Below, in pieces: positions 1,383-40,700 of a stretch of 64,000 nucleotides of DNA (positions within the stretch are counted from its first letter, which is position 1; every line of letters begins with the position of its first letter). The stretch comes from a phage, in sequence record NC_111505.1; one strand, written 5' to 3'. The notes beneath the pieces are model-generated. The model was not told the origin of the DNA. It saw only the letters and a program-made list of their open reading frames with translations, and did not search any database. A program made the position numbers and the translations under genes.

Positions 1383-1407
1383 CAAACAGATAAGCTTTAG
1401 ATATTAT
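1380..1407 (+). promoter_or_regulatory. Sigma70-like promoter TTGACA-N17-TATTAT
   Basis: TTGACA at about 1379-1384, 17-nt spacer, TATTAT at 1402-1407, just upstream of the SD and ATG at 1438. Confidence 0.55.
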
Positions 1408-1437
1408 TATTGGACAAAACAAGGAGAAGGGCACAGC

Positions 1438-1749
1438 ATGGCTACAATACAAGAGAGACTGAATAAAATATACTGCCTGTTTGTCTATAACGGTGAGACA
1501 ATTTTGGCAAATAAGGGATCCAAGAATGTGTGGACCAAGGACAGTGGTGGTAACATAATCAACTTAGCGTTGCTACGTGAGCGCAGACACAGATTCTTTA
1601 TCGAGTCTCGGATTATTGAAAGCAGTACCTGCTACAGAACAGGCGATAAAGTAATTGTTGACAATGATACGTGGTATGTGGTAGACTGGCAATCACTGAG
1701 CTGTGATGCTTCTGACAATCGTAAGTATTCTATAGTGATTGCTAAATAA
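1438..1749 (+). CDS. hypothetical protein (103 aa)
   Basis: ATG with SD AAGGAGAAGG 8 nt upstream. Confidence 0.6.
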   Translation: MATIQERLNKIYCLFVYNGETILANKGSKNVWTKDSGGNIINLALLRERRHRFFIESRIIESSTCYRTGDKVIVDNDTWYVVDWQSLSCDASDNRKYSIVIAK

Positions 1750-10045: not shown

Positions 10046-10309
10046 ATGATTGTTTATTTTAAAACTTCAGGTGGATATCCTGATTCTCAAAGCTTGATCG
10101 GAAAAACGTGCACAGCATACTCACCTCTTGATGAGGAGGTAAGCGATATTCTACGAAATATGTATCGGATTGACCCCCAAGAAGCCTTTGATCAAAACCT
10201 TGTATTTGTCAAGGGCTCAGACATGAAGTCTTTGGGAGCATTCCCTGAAGCAGATGATGATGCCGTTTATTCGTTCATGACTCCTTTTGAAGCTATGGTT
10301 GTTGGGTGA
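10046..10309 (+). CDS. small acidic protein (87 aa), related to the paralog family
   Basis: ATG with AGAGGTGA SD. Confidence 0.55.
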   Translation: MIVYFKTSGGYPDSQSLIGKTCTAYSPLDEEVSDILRNMYRIDPQEAFDQNLVFVKGSDMKSLGAFPEADDDAVYSFMTPFEAMVVG

Positions 10310-10313
10310 GAAT

Positions 10314-10646
10314 ATGAAAGTACGCTTTATTGGTGAAACAATTCCTGTGCATCTCCGGTCGCCTGAGGATTCTGCAGATCTTGCATCTCAAAAGGCCAGA
10401 GGGTATGATAAGAAAGTAATCTCAACCGATGTAGAGCTTGAGGCTACCAGTCTGCCTGACCCTGCTGCATTCTTTAATCATTATGGATACTATTTCAGCA
10501 ATCTGATGAATATCGGTGAGCTTGTGTTTATTAGTGGTGGAGAAATAGTTAGCAAGCTTGGCGGCGATCCGGATGTCTTTCATGAAACCTGCCCTTTTGC
10601 ATTTGTGGTAGGTTCAGATGTGGAAGTTATTGAGGAGGTGCGGTAA
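10314..10646 (+). CDS. small acidic protein, ...VEVIEE paralog family
   Basis: Track start is TTG 10287; ATG 10314 with GGGTGAG SD; C-terminal ...DVEVIEEVR. Confidence 0.55.
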   Translation: MKVRFIGETIPVHLRSPEDSADLASQKARGYDKKVISTDVELEATSLPDPAAFFNHYGYYFSNLMNIGELVFISGGEIVSKLGGDPDVFHETCPFAFVVGSDVEVIEEVR

Positions 10647-15011: not shown

Positions 15012-15359
15012 CACACAATTAGCTGCCAGGCTAAAGTGCTGGAAGCACCTATAACACATCTTTCAACTAAATTTCCTACCACCACAATCACTTACCTCCC
15101 ACACATGACTGTTTGCTTGTTTAGTGAGCAGTCATGCCTTGACATTCTTGCCTATCCTGATAAAATTAAGTTCTTCTCTTTTCTTTTACCGAGTAATTCG
15201 GGTTTTCTGTTCTCTTCGGTTTGAAGGGGTATGGAGATACACCTGAGTGAACAGGGTGAACAACCGAACAGTTGGCTATGGCATTAGCATGGCGAAGCGG
15301 ACGGGTGACGAAAGAGGGGCCGGAGGACACCAGTCACTGCCATATGGTATATGGGTGAT

Positions 15360-15925
15360 AACCTGAAGAGTCTGAATAAGTGTTTAAGTACCAGTCAGAG
15401 GAAAAGGTGAATGGTAGCCGAAGGGGGAGGGGGGTTTCTTGTATCTTTAATTTGTATATTTTATATACACTTGTAAACCAATTTCATCTGAATCTGTTTA
15501 CCACACAAAGTGGATAAAGTCAAATATTCCCTATTAAACTTGAATTATTTATAGAAAATACCACAACACCACTTAAGTCTTTGATTTTACACACAAATCT
15601 TACAAATATCTTACCTCCATATTTAACATACCTGTAACATATTCCATACTCTACCTGCCTGGTCAATTTACCCACCACATTCTCCACATTTTCCCTTCCT
15701 GTACTACCCCTGCCCCGCCGGGAGTCCCGTCATATCTGGCTTTCCAGCAAATATCACACCCACAAATATCATCACCTGAAGAGTGATTCATCCTATAATA
15801 CCTGCCTTACCTGAAGAGCGCTCCATACCCCACGTAAATTTTTTAATTGACCCCCTGCCCCGCCGGAGGGGTTGGCTTTTCCCACACAGGCCTGAAGAGT
15901 CAGCCAGAAATATCTGAAGGGGGTC
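15360..15925. repeat. Dispersed CCTGAAGAG motif (5 copies) plus two CCCTGCCCCGCCGG copies
   Basis: Copies near 15362, 15777, 15812, 15892, 15914; GC-rich direct repeats near 15708 and 15852; irregular spacing as for protein-binding sites. Confidence 0.5.
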
Positions 15926-16096
15926 CAGTTCTGCCACGATTTTGACCTGACCTACAGGAGCGCTGCCAGGCGGACGAAATGGGAATACTTCTCATTCTTA
16001 TAACAATTCTCAAATATCAAGGCAGTGAGGCAAATTAATAGGCGAGGCCGTTCACACAGTGGCGCAACATTTGCAAGCTATTTTGTGTGGATGAAT

Positions 16097-16130
16097 GAGA
16101 ATACTTATCATTGTGAGAATCGTTATCATT
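16097..16130. repeat. Tandem 16-mer GAGAATNNTTATCATT (2 copies, 2-nt spacer)
   Basis: 16097-16112 and 16115-16130; the same 16-mer recurs at 27733-27748 and 27869-27884. Confidence 0.55.
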
Positions 16131-16534
16131 ACGGGCAATTTAACATAATACCCATTATGCGCACCACTGGCGATACATACATGGATTGATAACATGGGTT
16201 ACTGTTTACGCATATAACAATTGTATTTCTTATTATTTGTGGGGGATATAGTTAGCGACCAATAGATTAGATATTAACCTGCAGACTTCTGACCGTCCAG
16301 ACGTCTAAACGCCCACACAACAAGGGTTATACATACACTCCTGAATGTAAACAGGGCAGCAAAAATGCTACCATACCAGATTGTAAATTTTCCATGCAGC
16401 ACTTGACAAAGAGGAGAAAAACTTGTCTGACACAATGTCACACAATATGCCATAATCTGACACCTTATACACTTTCGACACAATAACGACTGTTATTATT
16501 TCATGTTTCATTGTTCACGTGCAGATTGTTCCCA

Positions 16535-16890
16535 CATAGACTGTTTACGCCCGGATAGTTTACACCTTGACAGTTTACACAAAGATGATAAGCCATGACA
16601 TTCGTTTGCATGATAACACCCTTGAGACGAGGGCCATGCTCCCGAGTTTAACAATTAACAAGATAACAATTGACAGGCCGACAATTAACAAGTTAACAAT
16701 ATATGACATAATATAAAAGCAGGGCAACTATTAGCAGATCATAGTTGCCTTGCTTATTATGTCATGATTAACTGAATACAAGGCAACTATGATCTGATCA
16801 ATAGTTTGCAGGCAAACTATCACGGGGGTGATGGTTACTGCTTTTATATTATGTCGCGACTCCGTCGCGCCATGACATTCGTTTGCATAG
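16535..16890. repeat. Cluster of direct repeats and palindromes (operator/iteron-like)
   Basis: Three (C/T)(T/A)GTTTACRC repeats at 16541-16582; CATGACATTCGTTTGCAT twice (16594, 16871); ACAATTAACAAG twice; two palindromes GCAACTAT-N9/10-ATAGTT(T)GC with GATC cores (16724-16748, 16783-16809). Confidence 0.5.
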
Positions 16891-17499
16891 TTGCCTTATT
16901 GTTACAGGTAAAACAATTACATTGTTAACTATTTCTTATCTTTCTCTTAGTCATCTAATGATTCCAGTCAGTATAGTTATGTACAGTAAACATTAGACGA
17001 CTAAAGATTTCTCTGATTATAGTAACCTATCGTGACAATTTCAGACTGTTTACGAAAAATGTTGACACCTGGGCGGGTTTATGTTATGCAGTTTACACGA
17101 ATAATTATTTCATACAGGTATTGACTATTCCGTTATTCTGTGGTTGGAATAAATACTTTGCAGGCTATAGAATGGTGTGCGTACGTGAATTCTGAGATCT
17201 GGCGGCTATAGTTACACCCGATTTTTCGCGCAGAACACGCTTTTTGGTTTGTGTAAGTGTATGACTTATAAAGATTTTTAGTTGTTGACACGGTATTGAA
17301 GATGTGCATCAGGTTAAATTTTGTGCAATAACTGCATTACGTGCAATTTTGGGAGAGAAAACGGGTAAAAATAGCACCGCTACCACACAATGAAAGGTTA
17401 TGCAATAGCTATTTTACATGTATATTTGTACAGTGTGCGGGATTGATGGCTCGTCAATTATTCCACTTGTCAGGTAGGGCCGTTTATGGTATGGGGAAG

Positions 17500-18794: not shown

Positions 18795-18928
18795 CGGTTT
18801 TTATAGTTCTTATATGACAGGCAGGCCCGGTGATTGTCTCCCCCTGTTCCCAAGTGCCGCCCGTTTAATAAGAATAGCAAAAGGGGCCGAACAAGTCAAC
18901 CCCAAAATCAGTACCAAAACACTTTTAT

Positions 18929-20953: not shown

Positions 20954-21187
20954 TCAACACTTTTCAAAAAATTTTTCTGCCGTGATATTCTTCCCGGTAG
21001 GGTTCGCTACTTTCAAAATTTTATCATGCACTGGACGCCCAAAAGAATAAGCGCCGTACACAGTGCACCAATAATCGCCGTCAGGCTGTACTATTACCGC
21101 CGCATAGGGTACGCCTTTTTCGTTTTTGCTGACAAAATAGATCACATTGCCATTAATAGCCTCAGCGCGTTTAATTTGTTCCATCAT
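20954..21187 (-). CDS. hypothetical protein (77 aa)
   Basis: ATG with GGTGA SD. Confidence 0.55.
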   Translation of the reverse strand: MMEQIKRAEAINGNVIYFVSKNEKGVPYAAVIVQPDGDYWCTVYGAYSFGRPVHDKILKVANPTGKNITAEKFFEKC

Positions 21188-27352: not shown

Positions 27353-27529
27353 TTAGTTAAAATTATTTTTTGGGCAGAACTCTCCAGCCGCCGCCCCTGA
27401 CAGGTTAACCATCATTTTTTCGTACTCTTCTTTATGTTCCAACGCTCCCGCCATAGCCTTTTCAACCAGGGGGATAGCCTCAGCGTCATTAATAGCTACA
27501 TTTTCCAGGGGGATCCTATTACCTTTCAT
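27353..27529 (-). CDS. candidate 58-aa protein
   Basis: ATG with strong SD AAGAGGAGG; MKGNRIPLENVAINDAEAIPLVEKAMAGALEHKEEYEKMM...; below track cutoff. Confidence 0.35.
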   Translation of the reverse strand: MKGNRIPLENVAINDAEAIPLVEKAMAGALEHKEEYEKMMVNLSGAAAGEFCPKNNFN

Positions 27530-27594
27530 TTTTGTACCTCCTCTTCAATTGTTACTATCCTATAGCATAGGCCCACCAGGCTGGCCCCGCCAGG

Positions 27595-27623
27595 TTGCAG
27601 CGGTTAGCGCATCAGGTTAGAAT
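27595..27623 (+). promoter_or_regulatory. Sigma70-like promoter (TTGCAG-N17-TAGAAT), + strand, followed by T10 run
   Basis: First of two tandem rightward promoters facing an ORF-free region. Confidence 0.5.
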
Positions 27624-27642
27624 TTTTTTTTTTTGAAAAGTG

Positions 27643-27671
27643 TTGACAGCGGCCCCGCCAGGTGGCACAAT
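27643..27671 (+). promoter_or_regulatory. Sigma70-like promoter (TTGACA-N17-CACAAT), + strand
   Basis: Consensus -35; weaker -10; directly upstream of structured element copy 1. Confidence 0.4.
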
Positions 27672-27675
27672 ATAC

Positions 27676-27750
27676 ATATCGAAAGGACGGCAGGCACCGG
27701 TGACGGGGGAGACAACCACCGGGGATGGGCGCTGCATGAAATGAGAACGA
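27676..27750 (+). ncRNA. Candidate small structured RNA / repeated element, copy 1
   Basis: No ORF; internal CCGGTG..CACCGG stem; conserved blocks GGGAGACAAYCACCGGGGRTG and GAGAAYGATTATCATT shared with copy 2. Confidence 0.25.
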
Positions 27751-27819
27751 TTATCATTATCGTCTAAAAATTTATGCAAAAACTTCTTGCTTTCTTTGTC
27801 CTGTGTGATACTATAATAA

Positions 27820-27886
27820 CAAGCCGGGGCAGTAGGGGCCGGGAGACAATCACCGGGGGTGCCCGTTATTCTGCAAACGAGAATGA
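27820..27886 (+). ncRNA. Candidate small structured RNA / repeated element, copy 2
   Basis: Preceded by promoter-like TTGCTT..TATAAT (27787-27817); same conserved blocks as copy 1. Confidence 0.25.
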
Positions 27887-28009
27887 TTATCATTCAAAAT
27901 TCTAAATGATAACTTTTCGCATTTCATAAATTTAGTTAGCATGCTAATTACCTACCGTGACAATTCTATATAAAATAATACCTCCTAAAATATTCCCATA
28001 TAGAAATTT

Positions 28010-28185
28010 TAAAAATCCATTTCTGAAAACGAAAAATCGATTTCGTCCCCAAAAATTTCAGGTCGAGCGCCGGAACGATTCCCAGAAAATCTGATTCAGA
28101 AAACGAAAAACAGATCGAGTACCGAAAAATTTATCGAGAAAAATTTTCAGAAAATTCAATCTTTGAAACGAAAAACAGATCGAGT
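28010..28185. repeat. AT-rich iteron array (3 copies of GAAAACGAAAAACAGATCGAGTAC-like 23-mer with GATC cores)
   Basis: Copies at about 28019, 28094, 28160 (66-75 bp spacing); flanking ATCCATTT repeats at 28011, 28371, 28391, 28453. Confidence 0.45.
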
Positions 28186-28518
28186 ACTGAGAGAGAGATG
28201 TATCAAAACTTACTGATAATAATTAACTTATTGTCATAAAAGGCCGAAGGTAAGTTGGGAAAGTTCTGGTAGAAGGGTGAGAGTGTGTGCGGAAAATCTG
28301 GAACGGTGATTTGAAGTACGGTGCGAATGATAGAATGAGCAGCGCAGCTTATCGCGCCTGTATTGAAAAAATCCATTTTAGTTTTCGATCCATTTTCTGA
28401 TTTTCTAAGGATTTCCAAATATCTGCAAATATCTGATAAATAAGGGAAAATCCATTACATATTTTCCCTCATCGCCTAAAATTTTTATAATTTTAAAATA
28501 AATACTACCATAAATATC

Positions 28519-37480: not shown

Positions 37481-37756
37481 CAATAGTTCAGGTAGGTCGT
37501 TAAGCTACCCCGCACCATTACGTGCATAGCCATACGTTTTCACGTAGGATCGGACCATCTCATATTCCTATGATAAGCAACCACAGGAATCCTCCCATTT
37601 CGACCGCACTTGCTGGTCTACTTCCTTTCGGAATGGCCTCTGAGCGTTCGCTCTTTTGAGCGCTTCGTTGCGGATTACCTTGCCATAAGGTTTAGGCTTC
37701 CCGCAGTTAAAGAGGTTATTCGACATAGATTACTCTATGAAGCCACAATGTTATTT
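37481..37756 (-). mobile_element. ORF-less group I intron (IA2-like) interrupting the DNA polymerase gene at motif C
   Basis: 276 nt between pol ORF stop and 3' exon; 5' exon ends ...CAU (U), intron ends ...CUAUUG (G); GUGG near intron 5' end can pair with exon CCAU (P1, G-U at splice site); 3' part ...GGGGUAGCUUAACGACCUACCUGAACUAUUG resembles the T4 td intron 3' end as I recall it. Confidence 0.65.
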
Positions 37757-40700
37757 ATGGTAATAAATAATACGACGAACACCTTCATCGTACCACCCAC
37801 GCTTCACCATTTGGTGGTGCATGAGTATCCCAACTAAGTCACACAACGATGCACCACCATTTTGTTGGTATGCATTAAGTAAAGAGTGTTTAGATCGAGT
37901 CCAGATGGCATGACCATCAAAAGAGTAGATAAACTTCTTACCTGTTGCTTCCCAGAATTTCTCCAGATCCTCTTTGCGCCCCTTAAGACCAGGGTTGGCA
38001 TCCCAAAGCGCATCGATTACCTTTTGCCCTAACTCTGGGGAGATATCCAGCATGTCTGCAACTTTATCTTTTTGTGCCCCGTACATAACACCGTACGTGA
38101 CAGGCTTACCATCGTTACGGGAAATCTCCTTGCCTGCTACAGAAGAGTAAGCTTTGGCGTTATTACAGTTACCGCACACTGCCACTTTACCATTCCTTCT
38201 CACAATGATTGCTCCAGAAGGGACGGTAACGCAATAAACCAAAGAACCACTCACCTCGACAGACTCTTTAGATAGTGTCAGCAACCCTGCTCTCTGTTTG
38301 CTACCAATCGTGATTCTGTGCTGTACGGAACGACCTTTTTTGTGAATCGCCACCGTATTATTCCGTAAACCACACTGAGTAGCCAGCGCAGACACAACCT
38401 CTACAGATTTCTTCCTGCACTCGGCCTGAGAGTAGTAGGCAACTTTTCCACCTTCGGAAGATACCCACCCGTCCCAGTTAGATAAAGAAGCTATAAACAG
38501 GTTTTTAGATTCTTTATCAAGGTCCATCAGGTTGTAGGTGAAATCCTTATTGCTGTCCAAAAACTCAAATACCCAGGACGGAACGTGGAATTGGAACCTT
38601 CTCGCCAGTAAGCCCCCTTTTGTGGTTTTCCCGCCCTGCTCTACATAACTAAGGCTTAGAGCAGAAAAAGTATCTAAAAGCGTTGCAACTTTTCTGCCCT
38701 TCCCGACCTGAATCCTGCACACGATGCTGCCGTCCTTATTTGTATGCAAGTGTCCATCATCGTGAATAGCAATAAGCAAATTAATCTGGGCAGGAGATAA
38801 GGTTGTATTCCCATAAAACTCTGCCGCATGGATAAACCTTCTTCCTGAATTAGACCCTTTACCTGCTTTCAGGTCTTTTGCCAAATCTTCAAACAATTTA
38901 TTGCTTCTGTGATCCACGGTCAGCATCCTGTGTTGATCTGTAACCATAAAATCCACACCGCTGTTGTGGAAATGATACATATCCCCACAATAACCACGCT
39001 TAACGTAATTTAATGGTGTAACAAGGTTCATCGACGAGGTGTTGTGATCGTACTGGAACACTTGTGTTCCCGGATCAAGATCTTCAAACCTCACCCACCC
39101 TTTCTCCGTGAGAATTTGTGTATCTCCTGAATAACAGTGTGCATCGCCGTTACTTACAACATCATAATACAAGCCGTTGTCGAACTCAAAGGCACCCCAA
39201 GCCCCGATAAGCTGCTCTAAGTTGGACCCGTCAATACCGATCTCAAAGTATCCTGGAGGAACGCCCCACAGACTACGCATCTCTTTACCCATAACCACTT
39301 TAGGAGATGGTTTAGGCATGTTTGCACAAATACTGTGTTTCTGTCTGGAAGTGTTTGTCAATCCAGAACTTTTAGCAGGAAGCTTGTGGTCAATCTTCAG
39401 ACGTGGATGATTAAGAAGACCAGTATCAACCTTATCCTCCTTGATTGGATCAAGTACCGATCTACGGTTTCGCAAGGATAACCACAAGACGATATCTTTA
39501 GCCATCTCTCCGTTCAACTTTTCAAGATTCGGACATAGGTGTCCAAACGTATCTTTCAGTTGCGGAGAAGTAATAAGCGCTCTGGCTTTTCTACGTATCT
39601 TCCCAAACACTTCCTTTTTAATCCTTTCTGAGTTAGGGAAGCTTCGGAACTTGTGCACGGTTGTCTGAAACTTAGCATCAGTTTTGTTCCAGAAGTTGAT
39701 AATTAGGTCACAATACTCTGACTCTAAAAGCTCGTCCATATATGCATATACTCGTGCATCAACATCAGCATCAGGCAGAGCTTTCTTCTTGCTGTCCTTG
39801 GTTACATCTTTAGTTCTCCACATTGTTGGGAGCCAACCAGCGCTGATCAAATATCGCTTAATATCGTCCTGGTTGCTGATCTTCATAGGTATCTTGCAGT
39901 CAGGCATCCGCTTCTGCTGCAGATCACTTATTGCCTGATCCATTAGTTCTTTAGGTAAAGGATGTGGTGTCGAGGTACCTTTAATATACCCCCTTAAGAA
40001 ATCAGCCATCTTATCGGGGTCTTTGCAGCCCATCTCTTCACACCATTTTATCCCCATTTTGCTGACATCTCCTGTGGAGGTAAAGGCTCGCTTAGGTGGG
40101 GCTTTGAATTCTAAAGCACTCATGTCCACAGGATAGCCAAGCTTGTCTTTTAACCATTTCCAACCGTTATTAGAGATTGTCCCATCTTGGTTAAACGGCT
40201 TTTCAGGGAACTTAGGCCGCTGAGACATTGATAGCTCTTTTAGAGGAAGTTGTGGTTCAACACGATCAGCGATCTCTTTCATCCACGCATCGCAGCGGTC
40301 ACGTAAAGCAATAGCCCCATCTATGTCGAAATACACACCCTGTCGAGCCTGCAGCTCCATCAGGAAATGCTGCAGCATGCCTCGGCGTAATGCATTCTTC
40401 CAGGTGATCTTCTTGAAGCCTTTCGGCTTCTCTTTGGCAGGATCGTACATAAAGTTCTGCATGTCAGATTTGCCGTAGAATACACCTTTTGATTCTGCTA
40501 CCAACTCCTTCCAGAGCAACTCCTGGATGATAACGTCCTCGAACACACGATCCACATACTTCCACAGCGGAAGCTCACGCCAGTCATCGATTTGAACTTT
40601 CTGGTTACCAAGGGCATAGCCCCATGCCATAAGGCCATGAGGCCCAACAGGTTGCATTTTCTTGGTAACTGGATTGAATACTGCGTCCGGACAACCTTTT

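Follow-up and report, generated by a model that had tools for sequence, protein, structure and literature searches.

Gene-Free Island in a Vequintavirus Genome

The window analyzed here, the whole stretch of 64,000 nucleotides, belongs to an rV5/FV3-like coliphage of the Vequintavirus type. Positions 27560-28500 form a gene-free island of about 1 kb without a conserved ORF, in which promoters, a leader motif, Fur-type boxes, three long repeats, a G-skewed spacer, and arrays of ATCCATTT and CAAATATC succeed each other from left to right (Table 1). The promoters of the island point rightward, against the direction of all flanking genes.

The earlier note had described the island as free of credible ORFs, and we indeed recovered only short ones within 27530-28518. 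The 93-aa ORF on the - strand (27612..27893, ORF182 in the FV3 annotation) is interrupted by stops in MiataMamis, L009, and L005, and its variable sites are distributed over the three codon positions as 10/12/11, without third-position bias; we thus concluded that it is not coding. On the + strand, a 43-aa ORF with its start at 27774 lacks a Shine-Dalgarno sequence, and the equivalent place in GAP31 contains no open frame.

Rfam covariance models gave no match in the island at the gathering threshold and only noise up to an E-value of 10, and nothing was obtained either for the GAP31, phiTE, or Shewanella loci. No tRNA was found in the island. Mimicry of a host gene was rejected, there being no match in E. 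coli. As to plasmid origins, we recovered no plasmid relative, the lone "plasmid" match being a full-length phage genome.

Table 1. Features of the island and of the related module at 18.8 kb.
Feature	Position	Strand	Remarks
GC-rich 17-mer GGCCCCGCCAGGTTGCA	27583..27599	+	Recurs at 27651-27667 as copy-1 promoter spacer, 94% identical
Weak promoter-like site TTGCAG-17-TAGAAT	27595..27623	+	Read from sequence; kept in close relatives
T12 tract	27623..27634	+	A/T-rich upstream element of the next promoter; length differs among relatives
Copy-1 promoter, early-type sigma70, TTGACA-17-CACAAT with TG extension	27643..27671	+	Promoter scan, 10/12 matches
Leader copy 1, core GAGACAACCACCGGGG at 27709-27724	27685..27736	+	94-96% identical among Vequintavirus relatives
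Copy-1 Fur-box-like palindrome GAGAACGATTATCATTATC	27739..27761		17/19 to consensus on - strand
Copy-2 promoter TTGCTT-16-TGaTACTAT, or TATAAT at 27812-27817	27787..27817	+	Read from sequence
Leader copy 2, core GAGACAATCACCGGGGG at 27843-27859, then conserved block TGCCCGTTATTCTG	27822..27870	+	
Copy-2 double Fur-box cassette	27875..27923		Two boxes, 29 bp start to start
Long direct repeat 1 (AAAAATCCATTTCTGAAAACGAAAAATCGATTTCGTCCCCAAAAATTT)	28010..28062	+	
Long direct repeat 2 (…GAAAACGAAAAACAGATCGAGTACCGAAAAATTT)	28084..28136	+	
Long direct repeat 3 (…GAAACGAAAAACAGATCGAGTACTGAG)	28149..28200	+	
Variable spacer, G- and purine-rich on + strand	28201..28360	+	G skew +0.57 to +0.72
Right-hand arrays: ATCCATTTT x2 (28371, 28388), CAAATATCTG x2 (28416, 28426)	28364..28440	+	
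Third promoter and leader module, TTGACT-17-TATTCT, core GAGACAATCACC at 18829-18840	18813..18899	-	

Promoters and a Promoter-Proximal Leader Motif

Two tandem promoters had been proposed in the left part of the island. The one at 27643-27671 was confirmed by the promoter scan, whereas the one at 27595-27623 is weaker, with three of six matches in the -35 by reading, and remained below the scan threshold. The run of ten T reported between them is in fact the T12 tract, of variable length in relatives. We also noticed a third promoter at 27787-27817, before leader copy 2 and preceded by an A5T3 tract (27766-27773), that the earlier note had missed.

The copy-1 promoter is of the same type as the early promoters of the phage and has its upstream sequence in common with the - strand early promoters at 20957 and 30986. 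We observed no variation of the -35 in 11 relatives, in which the -10 is only CACAAT, CAAAAT, CATAAT, or TATTAT. The TATAAT of the copy-2 promoter is invariant in relatives, and counterparts of this promoter precede the element in GAP31, CR3, phiTE, Hena1, Shewanella phages 1/4, and L063. Spacers with GGCCCC/GGGGCC are found in the promoters before nearly all leader copies of the Vequintavirinae type, and also in L063.

The leader motif GAGACAAWCACCGG, conserved and G-rich, begins within about 10 nt of its promoter. The duplication previously noticed was recovered by self-BLAST (75% identity over 57 nt, E ~1e-4), and a third copy is present at 18.8 kb on the - strand (leader element at 18813-18863). 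This third module lacks a Fur box; another promoter and then a 90-aa gene come after it. The unrelated contig L007/L008 contains four leader copies, and one copy in L008 is self-contained, with a promoter, the element, a U5 run, and a bidirectional terminator, without downstream gene. A promoter is located just upstream of all the leader copies (more than 20 distinct ones, from several phage groups). The leader is not specific to the candidate origin discussed below, as shown by the copies at 18.8 kb and in L007/L008, which either lie before ordinary genes or form units of their own with a terminator. The GGGAGACAAYCACCGGGG half of what had been described as a structured element is the core of a promoter-proximal leader, which also occurs elsewhere in the genome and in other phages and which characterizes a particular subclass of early promoters whose spacers are GC-rich. 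It could correspond to a new cis-acting transcription or RNA element.

RNA Structure of the Leader

Transcription of the + strand at the island is likely, and the structured character attributed to the element was not established at the RNA level. RNAalifold predicted 0 pairs on the MAFFT alignment of 21 leader copies. The MFE z-scores were on average -1.06 on the + strand vs. -0.36 on the - strand, the + strand being favored in 18 of 23 copies. The helix closing the 5' and 3' ends was not better than in shuffled sequences, except in CR3 and in copy 3, and its register differs from clade to clade. The scan found no terminator in the window, and none follows copy 1 or copy 2. The only antisense targets of the leader core within the window were the three copies themselves.

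One explanation of these data would be that copies 1 and 2 and the 18.8 kb copy produce abundant early stand-alone sRNAs of about 50-70 nt, able to bind or titrate a factor of the host or the phage through their conserved GAGACAAUCACCGGGG segment, for instance as a decoy or anti-defence RNA, the downstream repeats being an unrelated protein-binding array. In its favor, a strong promoter precedes every copy, there are several paralogous copies per genome (three in the window, four in L007/L008), one copy of L008 is self-contained, and the + strand folds slightly better. However, copies 1 and 2 are devoid of terminator, neither a significant fold nor covariation was obtained, there is no Rfam match, complementary target in the window, or E. 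coli homolog, and the constant order of Fur boxes, repeats, and arrays would be left unexplained. We consider an sRNA locus unlikely.

The leader resembles the nut boxB of P22 and lambda, the put RNA of HK022, and the ops element for RfaH in being short, conserved, and orientation-dependent, and, as antitermination elements do, it is located within about 50 nt of the start of several transcription units. It contains GACAA, the loop of P22 boxB. In contrast to this boxB, the leader has no conserved stem closing GACAA, and the next position is U, A, or C; we found in it no antiterminator hairpin of the nut/put type with covariation support. It also differs from nut systems by the lack of boxA, and we identified no partner resembling N, Q, or RfaH. 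The boxA-like CGCUAUUC has at most 5/8 matches and is not conserved. Similarly, a match to ops (RfaH) in GGCGGTAG, present in L005 and L009, is not conserved in close relatives.

Fur-Box-Like Palindromes

The Fur consensus is GATAATGATAATCATTATC, or TGATAATnATTATCA in its 7-1-7 form, and Fur sites cluster at offsets of 3 or 6 bp (hexamer periodicity). With 15-17 of 19 positions matching this consensus, the GAGAAYGATTATCATT half of the presumed structured element proved to be a palindrome of the Fur-box type. The copy-1 site combines two strand matches at a single site, vs. 0.07 expected, and is the best in the 64 kb. In the copy-2 cassette, the first box (GAGAATGATTATCATTCAA at 27879-27897) has 15/19 matches and the second (AAATGATAACTTTTCGCATT at 27904-27923) is degenerate. 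The 7-1-7 pattern gave nine strand matches vs. 0.21 expected, all of them within the two ORF-free regions of the window (the second one is described at the end of the text). Pairs of Fur-box matches 6 nt apart are located at 27737/27743, 27873/27879, 16091/16097, and 16109/16115. The copy-1 box is one mismatch from TGAGAACGATTCTCA, the Fur box of feoA in E. faecalis, and the identical 15-mers TGAGAATGATTCTCA and TGATAACGATTCTCA are listed as the Fur boxes of operons whose derepression in a fur mutant of E. faecalis was 9-18-fold (PMC6056675). The 15-mers of the island are thus identical to, or one base off, the Fur boxes listed there.

One to four Fur-matching palindromes follow the leaders. 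We recovered the same double cassette in GAP31, CR3, Shewanella and Aeromonas phages, L047, and L073, and the first box of the cassette of phage 4MG is TGATAATGATTATCA, a perfect consensus. In the unrelated viral contigs L047 and L073, the cassette is located among DnaA boxes, 1.8 kb from a gene encoding a gp4-like primase-helicase in the case of L047, and in L020 it lies next to iterons. The island palindromes resemble the Fur boxes of iron-regulated promoters, both by their match to the consensus and by their pairing 6 nt apart, but they differ from classical ones in belonging to a lytic phage and in lying in gene-free DNA, between or upstream of promoters and not over an iron-uptake promoter. 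If they bind Fur, a family of strictly lytic phages, together with some phages unrelated to it, would be reading or manipulating the iron status of the host at a replication-control region.

The palindromes could also indicate that the island is a Fur-controlled regulatory or insulator region of the leftward operon. They overlap the putative - strand promoters TTGCAT-18-GATAAT (27779-27750) and TTGAAT-18-CAGAAT (27896-27867), from which the left - strand genes (27529..27353 and beyond) would be switched on when iron is scarce, with the rightward promoters providing transcriptional interference or antisense control. The overlap of the copy-1 box with the putative -10 corresponds to the classical geometry of a Fur repressor, and the 58-aa gene at 27529..27353, unlike its neighbors, has no promoter of its own. 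The TTGAAT adjacent to the box is invariant across genera, but the -10 varies (CGGAAT, CAAATT, or CTGAAT), and these hexamers are weak and were not reported by the scan, the + strand promoters being far better and conserved. A role in the leftward operon would, moreover, not account for the three long repeats and the right-hand arrays, and we regard it as rather improbable.

Long Repeats, Spacer, and Right-Hand Arrays

The earlier note had reported three 23-mer iterons containing GATC. Three direct repeats are indeed present, but their units are about 50 nt long, with spacings of 74 and 65 bp, and GATC is found in only two of them. Within each unit, an A/T tract and a GAAAA-rich part are combined with a clade-specific end having a (GA)TCGAG core; ATCCATT has four occurrences. 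GATC is not enriched (three in 940 bp of island vs. 5.3 per kb in the window), so that the suggested targeting of GATC by the putative adenine methyltransferase of the phage was not supported, and methyltransferase, Dam, or SeqA control was rejected.

The spacer that follows the repeats shows only 0.79-0.81 identity among close relatives, vs. 0.90-0.96 for the module among close Vequintavirus relatives. As a candidate ncRNA it was discarded, with a structure conservation index below 0.6 and no conserved fold. Among close relatives, the right-hand arrays show a high degree of conservation. Leaders and spacer are rich in G on the + strand, and a negative skew is obtained for the flanking - strand genes; the G-rich sign is that of the transcribed sense strand in this genome. 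The island holds four of the eight lowest-GC 100-bp windows of the 64 kb, as well as the lowest 200- and 400-bp windows.

Short repeated motifs with A-tracts on both sides of a central segment, in a circularly permuted genome, are also what one would expect of a pac site, in which the repeats would be recognized by the small terminase as in SPP1 or P1. The island is, however, far from the terminase genes and inside the early region, its GATC sites are not clustered, unlike those of P1 pac, and its early promoters and Fur boxes would have no packaging role. In addition, the GenBank records of many relatives start about 11-13 kb to the left, in the other ORF-free region. A packaging function of the island thus appears very improbable.

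Conservation of the Module Across Genera

We found the same layout in rV5-like, GAP31-like, Hena1-like, and CR3/phiTE-like phages, which infect many hosts. The repeats, whose absence from relatives the earlier note had named as evidence against its proposal, are conserved across genera, with three equivalent long-repeat units in every genus examined. Their ends are clade-dependent: CAGATCGAGTACC, TCGATCGAGAACC, CGATCGAGACCC, or CCTCTCAAGTCCC. Counterparts of the right-hand arrays, AAACCATTT and CAAATATC (x3), are present in GAP31, L018, L019, L024, L027, Hena1, CR3, and phiTE. In Aeromonas phage 2L372D, the promoter, the Fur boxes, and repeats of the TCGAGA type are present and the GAGACAA core was not seen. 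In other genera, positions 27848-27923 are recovered with 79-88% identity between flanks that cannot be aligned, and in most relatives from other genera this stretch of about 76 nt is the only one alignable by BLAST.

Since the layout is kept in relatives, chance can be ruled out as its cause. The island is real and functional, though unlike its first description: it is a non-coding module with a control function, conserved in rV5-like phages (Vequintavirinae and their relatives), and most likely a replication origin or control hub.

A Candidate Replication Origin

The replisome of these phages is T7-like, with a family A polymerase (PolA) and a gp4-like primase-helicase (FV3 annotation; PMC3606486). 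The authors of the rV5 genome paper searched for an origin by skew analysis and found none (PMC3606486), which we attribute to the skew tracking only transcription; our literature search retrieved nothing relevant on origins or transcriptomes of the rV5 type. The origin suggested by the earlier note is partly supported by the cross-genus layout, the lowest-GC DNA, and the T7-like replisome, from which we infer that early DNA replication of the theta type most likely starts in the island, with transcription as its activator or primer. We hold this proposal, a transcription-activated, iteron-type origin possibly gated by host Fur, tentatively, at somewhat less than an even chance.

Such an origin could work as follows. 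A phage-encoded protein would bind the long repeats and thereby bend or open the A/T tracts next to them. From the leader promoters, host RNA polymerase would transcribe into the repeat region, opening the DNA or supplying a primer to the replisome, and Fur bound between promoters and repeats would adjust this transcription to the iron status. The leader motif might act co-transcriptionally, as RNA or as non-template-strand DNA, by stabilizing or licensing the transcripts.

The clade-specific repeat ends are as expected for co-evolution with a cognate binder, and suggest that the latter is phage-encoded, by a gene located elsewhere than in the flanks of the island. We found no initiator gene beside the island, the flanking ORFs having no informative Pfam or PHROG match; the + strand DUF7170 ORF of GAP31 is not homologous to the 58-aa ORF of the window. 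DnaA boxes (TTWTNCACA) are absent from the island, and the window contains four of them vs. 7.9 expected. Unlike in GAP31-type phages, there is here no clear + strand promoter directly before the long repeats, which counts against an origin.

The primary origin of T7 consists of the tandem promoters phi1.1A/B followed by an AT-rich segment. The island is similar in that tandem promoters point into the most AT-rich DNA of the region, in a phage with a T7-type replisome. It differs in that its promoters are of the host sigma70 type and not promoters of a phage RNA polymerase, and in having iterons, Fur boxes, and a conserved leader motif, which the T7 origin does not have.

Iteron origins, such as those of lambda, pSC101, P1, and R6K, contain intrinsically bent A/T tracts and sites for host accessory proteins, with transcription nearby. 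The island shares with them at least three regularly spaced direct repeats with A/T tracts, adjoining easily melted DNA, with putative host-protein sites and promoters in the vicinity. In contrast to these origins, it has neither an identified adjoining initiator gene nor DnaA boxes, and its units of ~50 nt, spaced by 65-74 bp and much longer than the classical iterons of 17-22 bp, again count against an origin.

R-loop-primed origins are exemplified by RNA II of ColE1, oriF and oriG of T4, and mitochondrial CSB II. As in these, a promoter is followed in the island by a predicted transcript rich in G-runs and then by a putative unwinding region; the G-rich leader, unlike these elements, also precedes ordinary genes.

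A wider proposal, which we consider unlikely, is that host Fur has been built into the replication-control regions of phages, through a double Fur-box cassette placed between early promoters and origin repeats in the rV5-like ones, and that GAGACAAWCACCGG represents a new class of promoter-proximal leaders licensing transcripts. Replication of the phage DNA, or else its triggering transcription, would then be gated by host iron status, unless Fur is titrated by the phage. In the searchable literature we found no description of Fur boxes in rV5-like phages or of Fur at phage replication-control regions. The rV5-like phages are therapy candidates with a broad host range, and the island provides for them a precise origin candidate with defined parts, where the skew search of the rV5 paper had found none.

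The window contains another, larger ORF-free region at 15.3-17.1 kb, with Fur-like boxes and palindromes, which is an alternative origin candidate. In the Vibrio phage ICP1, a myovirus with a family A polymerase that ranks among the nearest homologs of the one of rV5, sequencing coverage has mapped an early bidirectional origin and a second, late one near pac (PMC7145576). The two ORF-free regions of the window may parallel these two origins, which were located by experiment in ICP1 and are proposed here from architecture.

Genomic setting of the island

The ORF-free island (27560-28500) matched 121 phage records in the database comparison. As its top matches were the Escherichia phages SYGMH1 (96.8%) and FV3, the window can be assigned to an rV5-like Vequintavirus. 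In FV3, the island corresponds to ~115.9-116.8 kb, within a long series of small early genes that are read leftward and that lie downstream of those for the DNA polymerase, the primase-helicase and the methyltransferase. The rV5 genome is circularly permuted and encodes a family A polymerase and a gp4-like primase-helicase; its origin was not found by skew analysis, because skew tracks transcription (PMC3606486).

Of the phage records, 16 carry the label "Campylobacter phage" with C. jejuni as host; these were ~91-95% identical to the window's E. coli phage across the island, and their host labels look doubtful. A plasmid collection record, CP057073.1 (137,565 bp), matched the island at 89% over 98% of its length. 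Its entry describes a non-mobilizable E. coli "plasmid" obtained from pooled cattle faeces; at the size of a Vequintavirus genome, it appears to be an entire rV5-like phage genome that was assembled out of a bacterial culture. Elsewhere in the window, comparison with FV3 places a group I intron in the interval that separates an HNH endonuclease gene from the main ORF of the DNA polymerase; from this position, the polymerase gene appears to be split by an intron with a homing endonuclease.

Features of the window and of related phages and viral contigs
Feature	Position	Strand	Remarks
Leader motif, copy 1	27685-27736	+	
Leader motif, copy 2	27822-27870	+	
Third leader core	18829-18840	-	directly after sigma70-type promoter TTGACT-17-TATTCT
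Promoter TTGACA-17-CACAAT, TG-extended	27643-27671	+	promoter scan
Third promoter, in front of copy 2	27787-27817	+	by reading; TATAAT invariant in relatives
T12 run	27623-27634		upstream of copy-1 promoter
HNH endonuclease ORF, 215 aa	28519-29166	-	phrog_953, E 4e-65
Group I intron	37531-37766	-	Rfam RF00028, 64.7 bits, E 4e-14
GC-rich hairpin leaders	~20650, 20925, 26565, 18760	-	
Four more Fur-like boxes	15978-16015 and 16092-16135		in the 15300-17100 region
Inverted GGCAACTAT...ATAGTTGCC palindromes	16720-16900		
Upstream non-coding unit, GAP31	L013 2330-2410		
Upstream non-coding unit, phiTE	L015 2335-2415		
Palindrome array with DnaA boxes	L047 1230-1450		
Palindrome array with DnaA boxes	L073 3430-3720		
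Palindrome array with ACCGGCAAAAATTGCCGC iterons	L020, ~10050-10400		reverse complement
Palindromes as 4-6 tandem boxes	L037 7000-7130		
Palindromes as 4-6 tandem boxes	L045, ~1400-1720		reverse complement

ORFs and promoters

Only short ORFs were present between 27530 and 28518, in agreement with the earlier note. A 93-aa ORF on the - strand (ORF182 of the FV3 annotators) was rejected as a gene: it contains stop codons in MiataMamis and in two more distant relatives (L005, L009), and its variable sites (10/12/11 over the three codon positions) indicate that it is not coding. The adjoining HNH ORF covers just the C-terminal half of its family profile and had no match in Pfam. It was found in few relatives only (SYGMH1, 241Ecol014PP, L005 and L009), so that the alignment of most relatives ends at 28423. 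Endonuclease-like genes also adjoin the islands of Hena1, contig L018 and Aeromonas phage 2L372D.

Two + strand promoters had been proposed in the island; the scan recovered the one preceding copy 1, whereas the other (27595-27623) was weaker and fell under the threshold. The T10 run described between them is actually a T12, whose length differs in nearly every relative and in which A's partly replace T's in some. The upstream element of the copy-1 promoter is also found at the - strand early promoters at 20957 and 30986. In nearly all promoters preceding the leader copies of Vequintavirinae type and of the 168-kb contig L063, the spacer is unusually GC-rich (GGCCCC or GGGGCC); the other early promoters of the window lack this feature.

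The leader motif

The two element copies noted in the island are real. Their core, GAGACAAYCACC, has three instances in the window, and a second promoter and then a 90-aa gene lie downstream of the third. Pattern scans of viral contigs recovered the motif in Vequintavirinae of several genera, in L063 and, in four copies, in an unrelated 47-kb contig (L007/L008). Every copy found by the scans starts ~6-20 nt past a -10 hexamer, and one L008 copy forms a self-contained unit including its own terminator. Rightward transcription of the motif is well supported by comparison, since a promoter directly precedes every copy, nearly all such promoters of Vequintavirinae type share the spacer type, and the copy-1 promoter has its upstream element in common with early promoters. 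Trans-acting small RNAs transcribed from this locus were judged unlikely; the leader had no match in Rfam, no homolog of the element was found in E. coli, and no complementary target was found within the window.

The description of the element as structured could not be upheld as a defined RNA fold. RNAalifold gave 0 consensus pairs, in most copies the potential closing helix did not outperform shuffled sequences of matched composition, and the pairing register varied from clade to clade. Mean MFE z-scores were -1.06 on the + strand versus -0.36 on the - strand.

Many early - strand transcripts would start with a short GC-rich hairpin ~10 nt past the -10, such as GGGCGGCAatgaTGCCGCC or GGCGGGAatgtcTCCCGCC. 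They resemble hairpins that stabilise 5' ends, and the leader motif appears to be the same feature in enlarged form. Just upstream of the leader, GAP31 and phiTE carry a separate conserved non-coding unit with its own promoter (ACGCCACCCCACGGCGAAAAGGCGGGGCTAACGTACCGGGC...GGTCGGAAGGTG.ATCGCCGG), which had no Rfam match and is not present in the window.

Fur-box-like palindromes

The GAGAAYGATTATCATT previously noted is, by its sequence, a palindrome of the type bound by Fur, the host iron regulator. The copy-1 palindrome matches the 19-bp Fur consensus at 17/19 positions; it is the top site of the 64 kb and the only one in the window with ≤3 mismatches (0.07 expected). The 7-1-7 Fur pattern gave 9 strand hits in the window versus 0.21 expected, all located either in the island or in the other ORF-free region (hits at 15998-16128). 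The hits are paired at a 6-nt offset, as is known for clusters of Fur sites. Box 1 of phage 4MG is a perfect TGATAATGATTATCA. The exact 15-mers TGAGAATGATTCTCA, found in relatives, and TGATAACGATTCTCA, present at 16114-16128, are given in a list of E. faecalis Fur boxes that belong to iron-uptake operons derepressed by mutation of fur (PMC6056675).

The boxes form a cassette, in which the first is followed by 5 nt, TAAATG and the second, with their starts 29 bp apart; it was recovered in phages of Escherichia, Cronobacter, Pectobacterium, Erwinia, Klebsiella, Shewanella and Aeromonas. It also occurs among DnaA boxes in the unrelated contigs L047, which encodes a gp4-like primase-helicase 1.8 kb away, and L073, and adjoins iterons in L020. 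Because the site is conserved across hosts and unrelated phages, the palindromes would be better explained by the conserved host protein Fur than by a phage-specific protein. If Fur binding were confirmed, the presence of such a cassette in the control DNA of a lytic phage would come as a surprise. We consider it improbable that the island is a Fur-controlled leftward promoter or insulator region; this reading and that of small RNAs are not mutually exclusive with an origin and could coexist with it. The same palindrome is arrayed in ORF-free DNA of unrelated viral contigs.

Repeats and a candidate origin

A common plan emerged when the 1 kb after the leader was read in ten phages. Fur boxes, to which GAP31-type phages add a promoter, are followed by three long direct repeats, a variable spacer, AAACCATTT-type repeats, three CAAATATC motifs spaced about one helical turn and the 3' end of the next leftward gene. 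The long repeats combine an A5-6T3-6 tract, an AGAAAAT.. part, a GAAAA-rich part and a clade-dependent end. In Aeromonas phage 2L372D, the promoter is present together with Fur boxes and repeats of the TCGAGA type, but the GAGACAA core is missing. Among close relatives, identity was 0.94-0.96 in the leaders and 0.90-0.94 in the repeats but just 0.79-0.81 in the spacer, which showed no conserved fold.

The three iterons of the earlier note were confirmed as repeats (units of ~50 nt at 28010, 28084 and 28149), although only 2/3 units contain GATC. GATC, suggested as a methyltransferase target, was not enriched, with 3 GATC in the 940 bp of the island versus 5.3 per kb overall. The lowest-GC windows of 100, 200 and 400 bp in the 64 kb fall in the island, where no DnaA boxes were found. 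The + strand is G-rich at the spacer and leaders, and the flanking genes have the opposite skew.

We tentatively propose, at slightly less than even confidence, that the island is a replication origin opened or primed by transcription. This reading is suggested because the promoters would fire opposite to the genes around them, into repeats and DNA that melts very readily, because the repeat ends vary by clade, as if tracking a cognate protein, because the phage has a T7-like replisome and no known origin, and because the same Fur cassette recurs in DnaA-box/iteron regions of other phages. In its logic the island is similar to the primary origin of T7, and in its repeats to lambda or plasmid origins. 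The origin first proposed gains support from the conserved layout, the AT-richness and the replisome; an RNA fold and the GATC idea were not supported. The failure to identify an initiator, the atypically long repeat units and a leader motif that is not origin-specific weigh against an origin, as does a competitor at 15.3-17.1 kb. No single part of the island is a new category; the combination is absent from the searchable literature.

The second ORF-free region

The 15300-17100 region is larger than the island, and rightward and leftward gene blocks converge there. Repeats of CCTGAAGAG and ACAATTAACAAG are found there too, and CATGACATTCGTTTGCAT is present in duplicate. In GenBank, many records of relatives begin within the equivalent of this region, as judged from the position of the island at ~11-13 kb in those records. 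The region may be a late origin or packaging region; that the island itself is a pac site of this circularly permuted type of genome seems highly improbable. In L005 and L009, which are more distant relatives, the counterpart of the island itself contains motifs of the GTAACTAT type.
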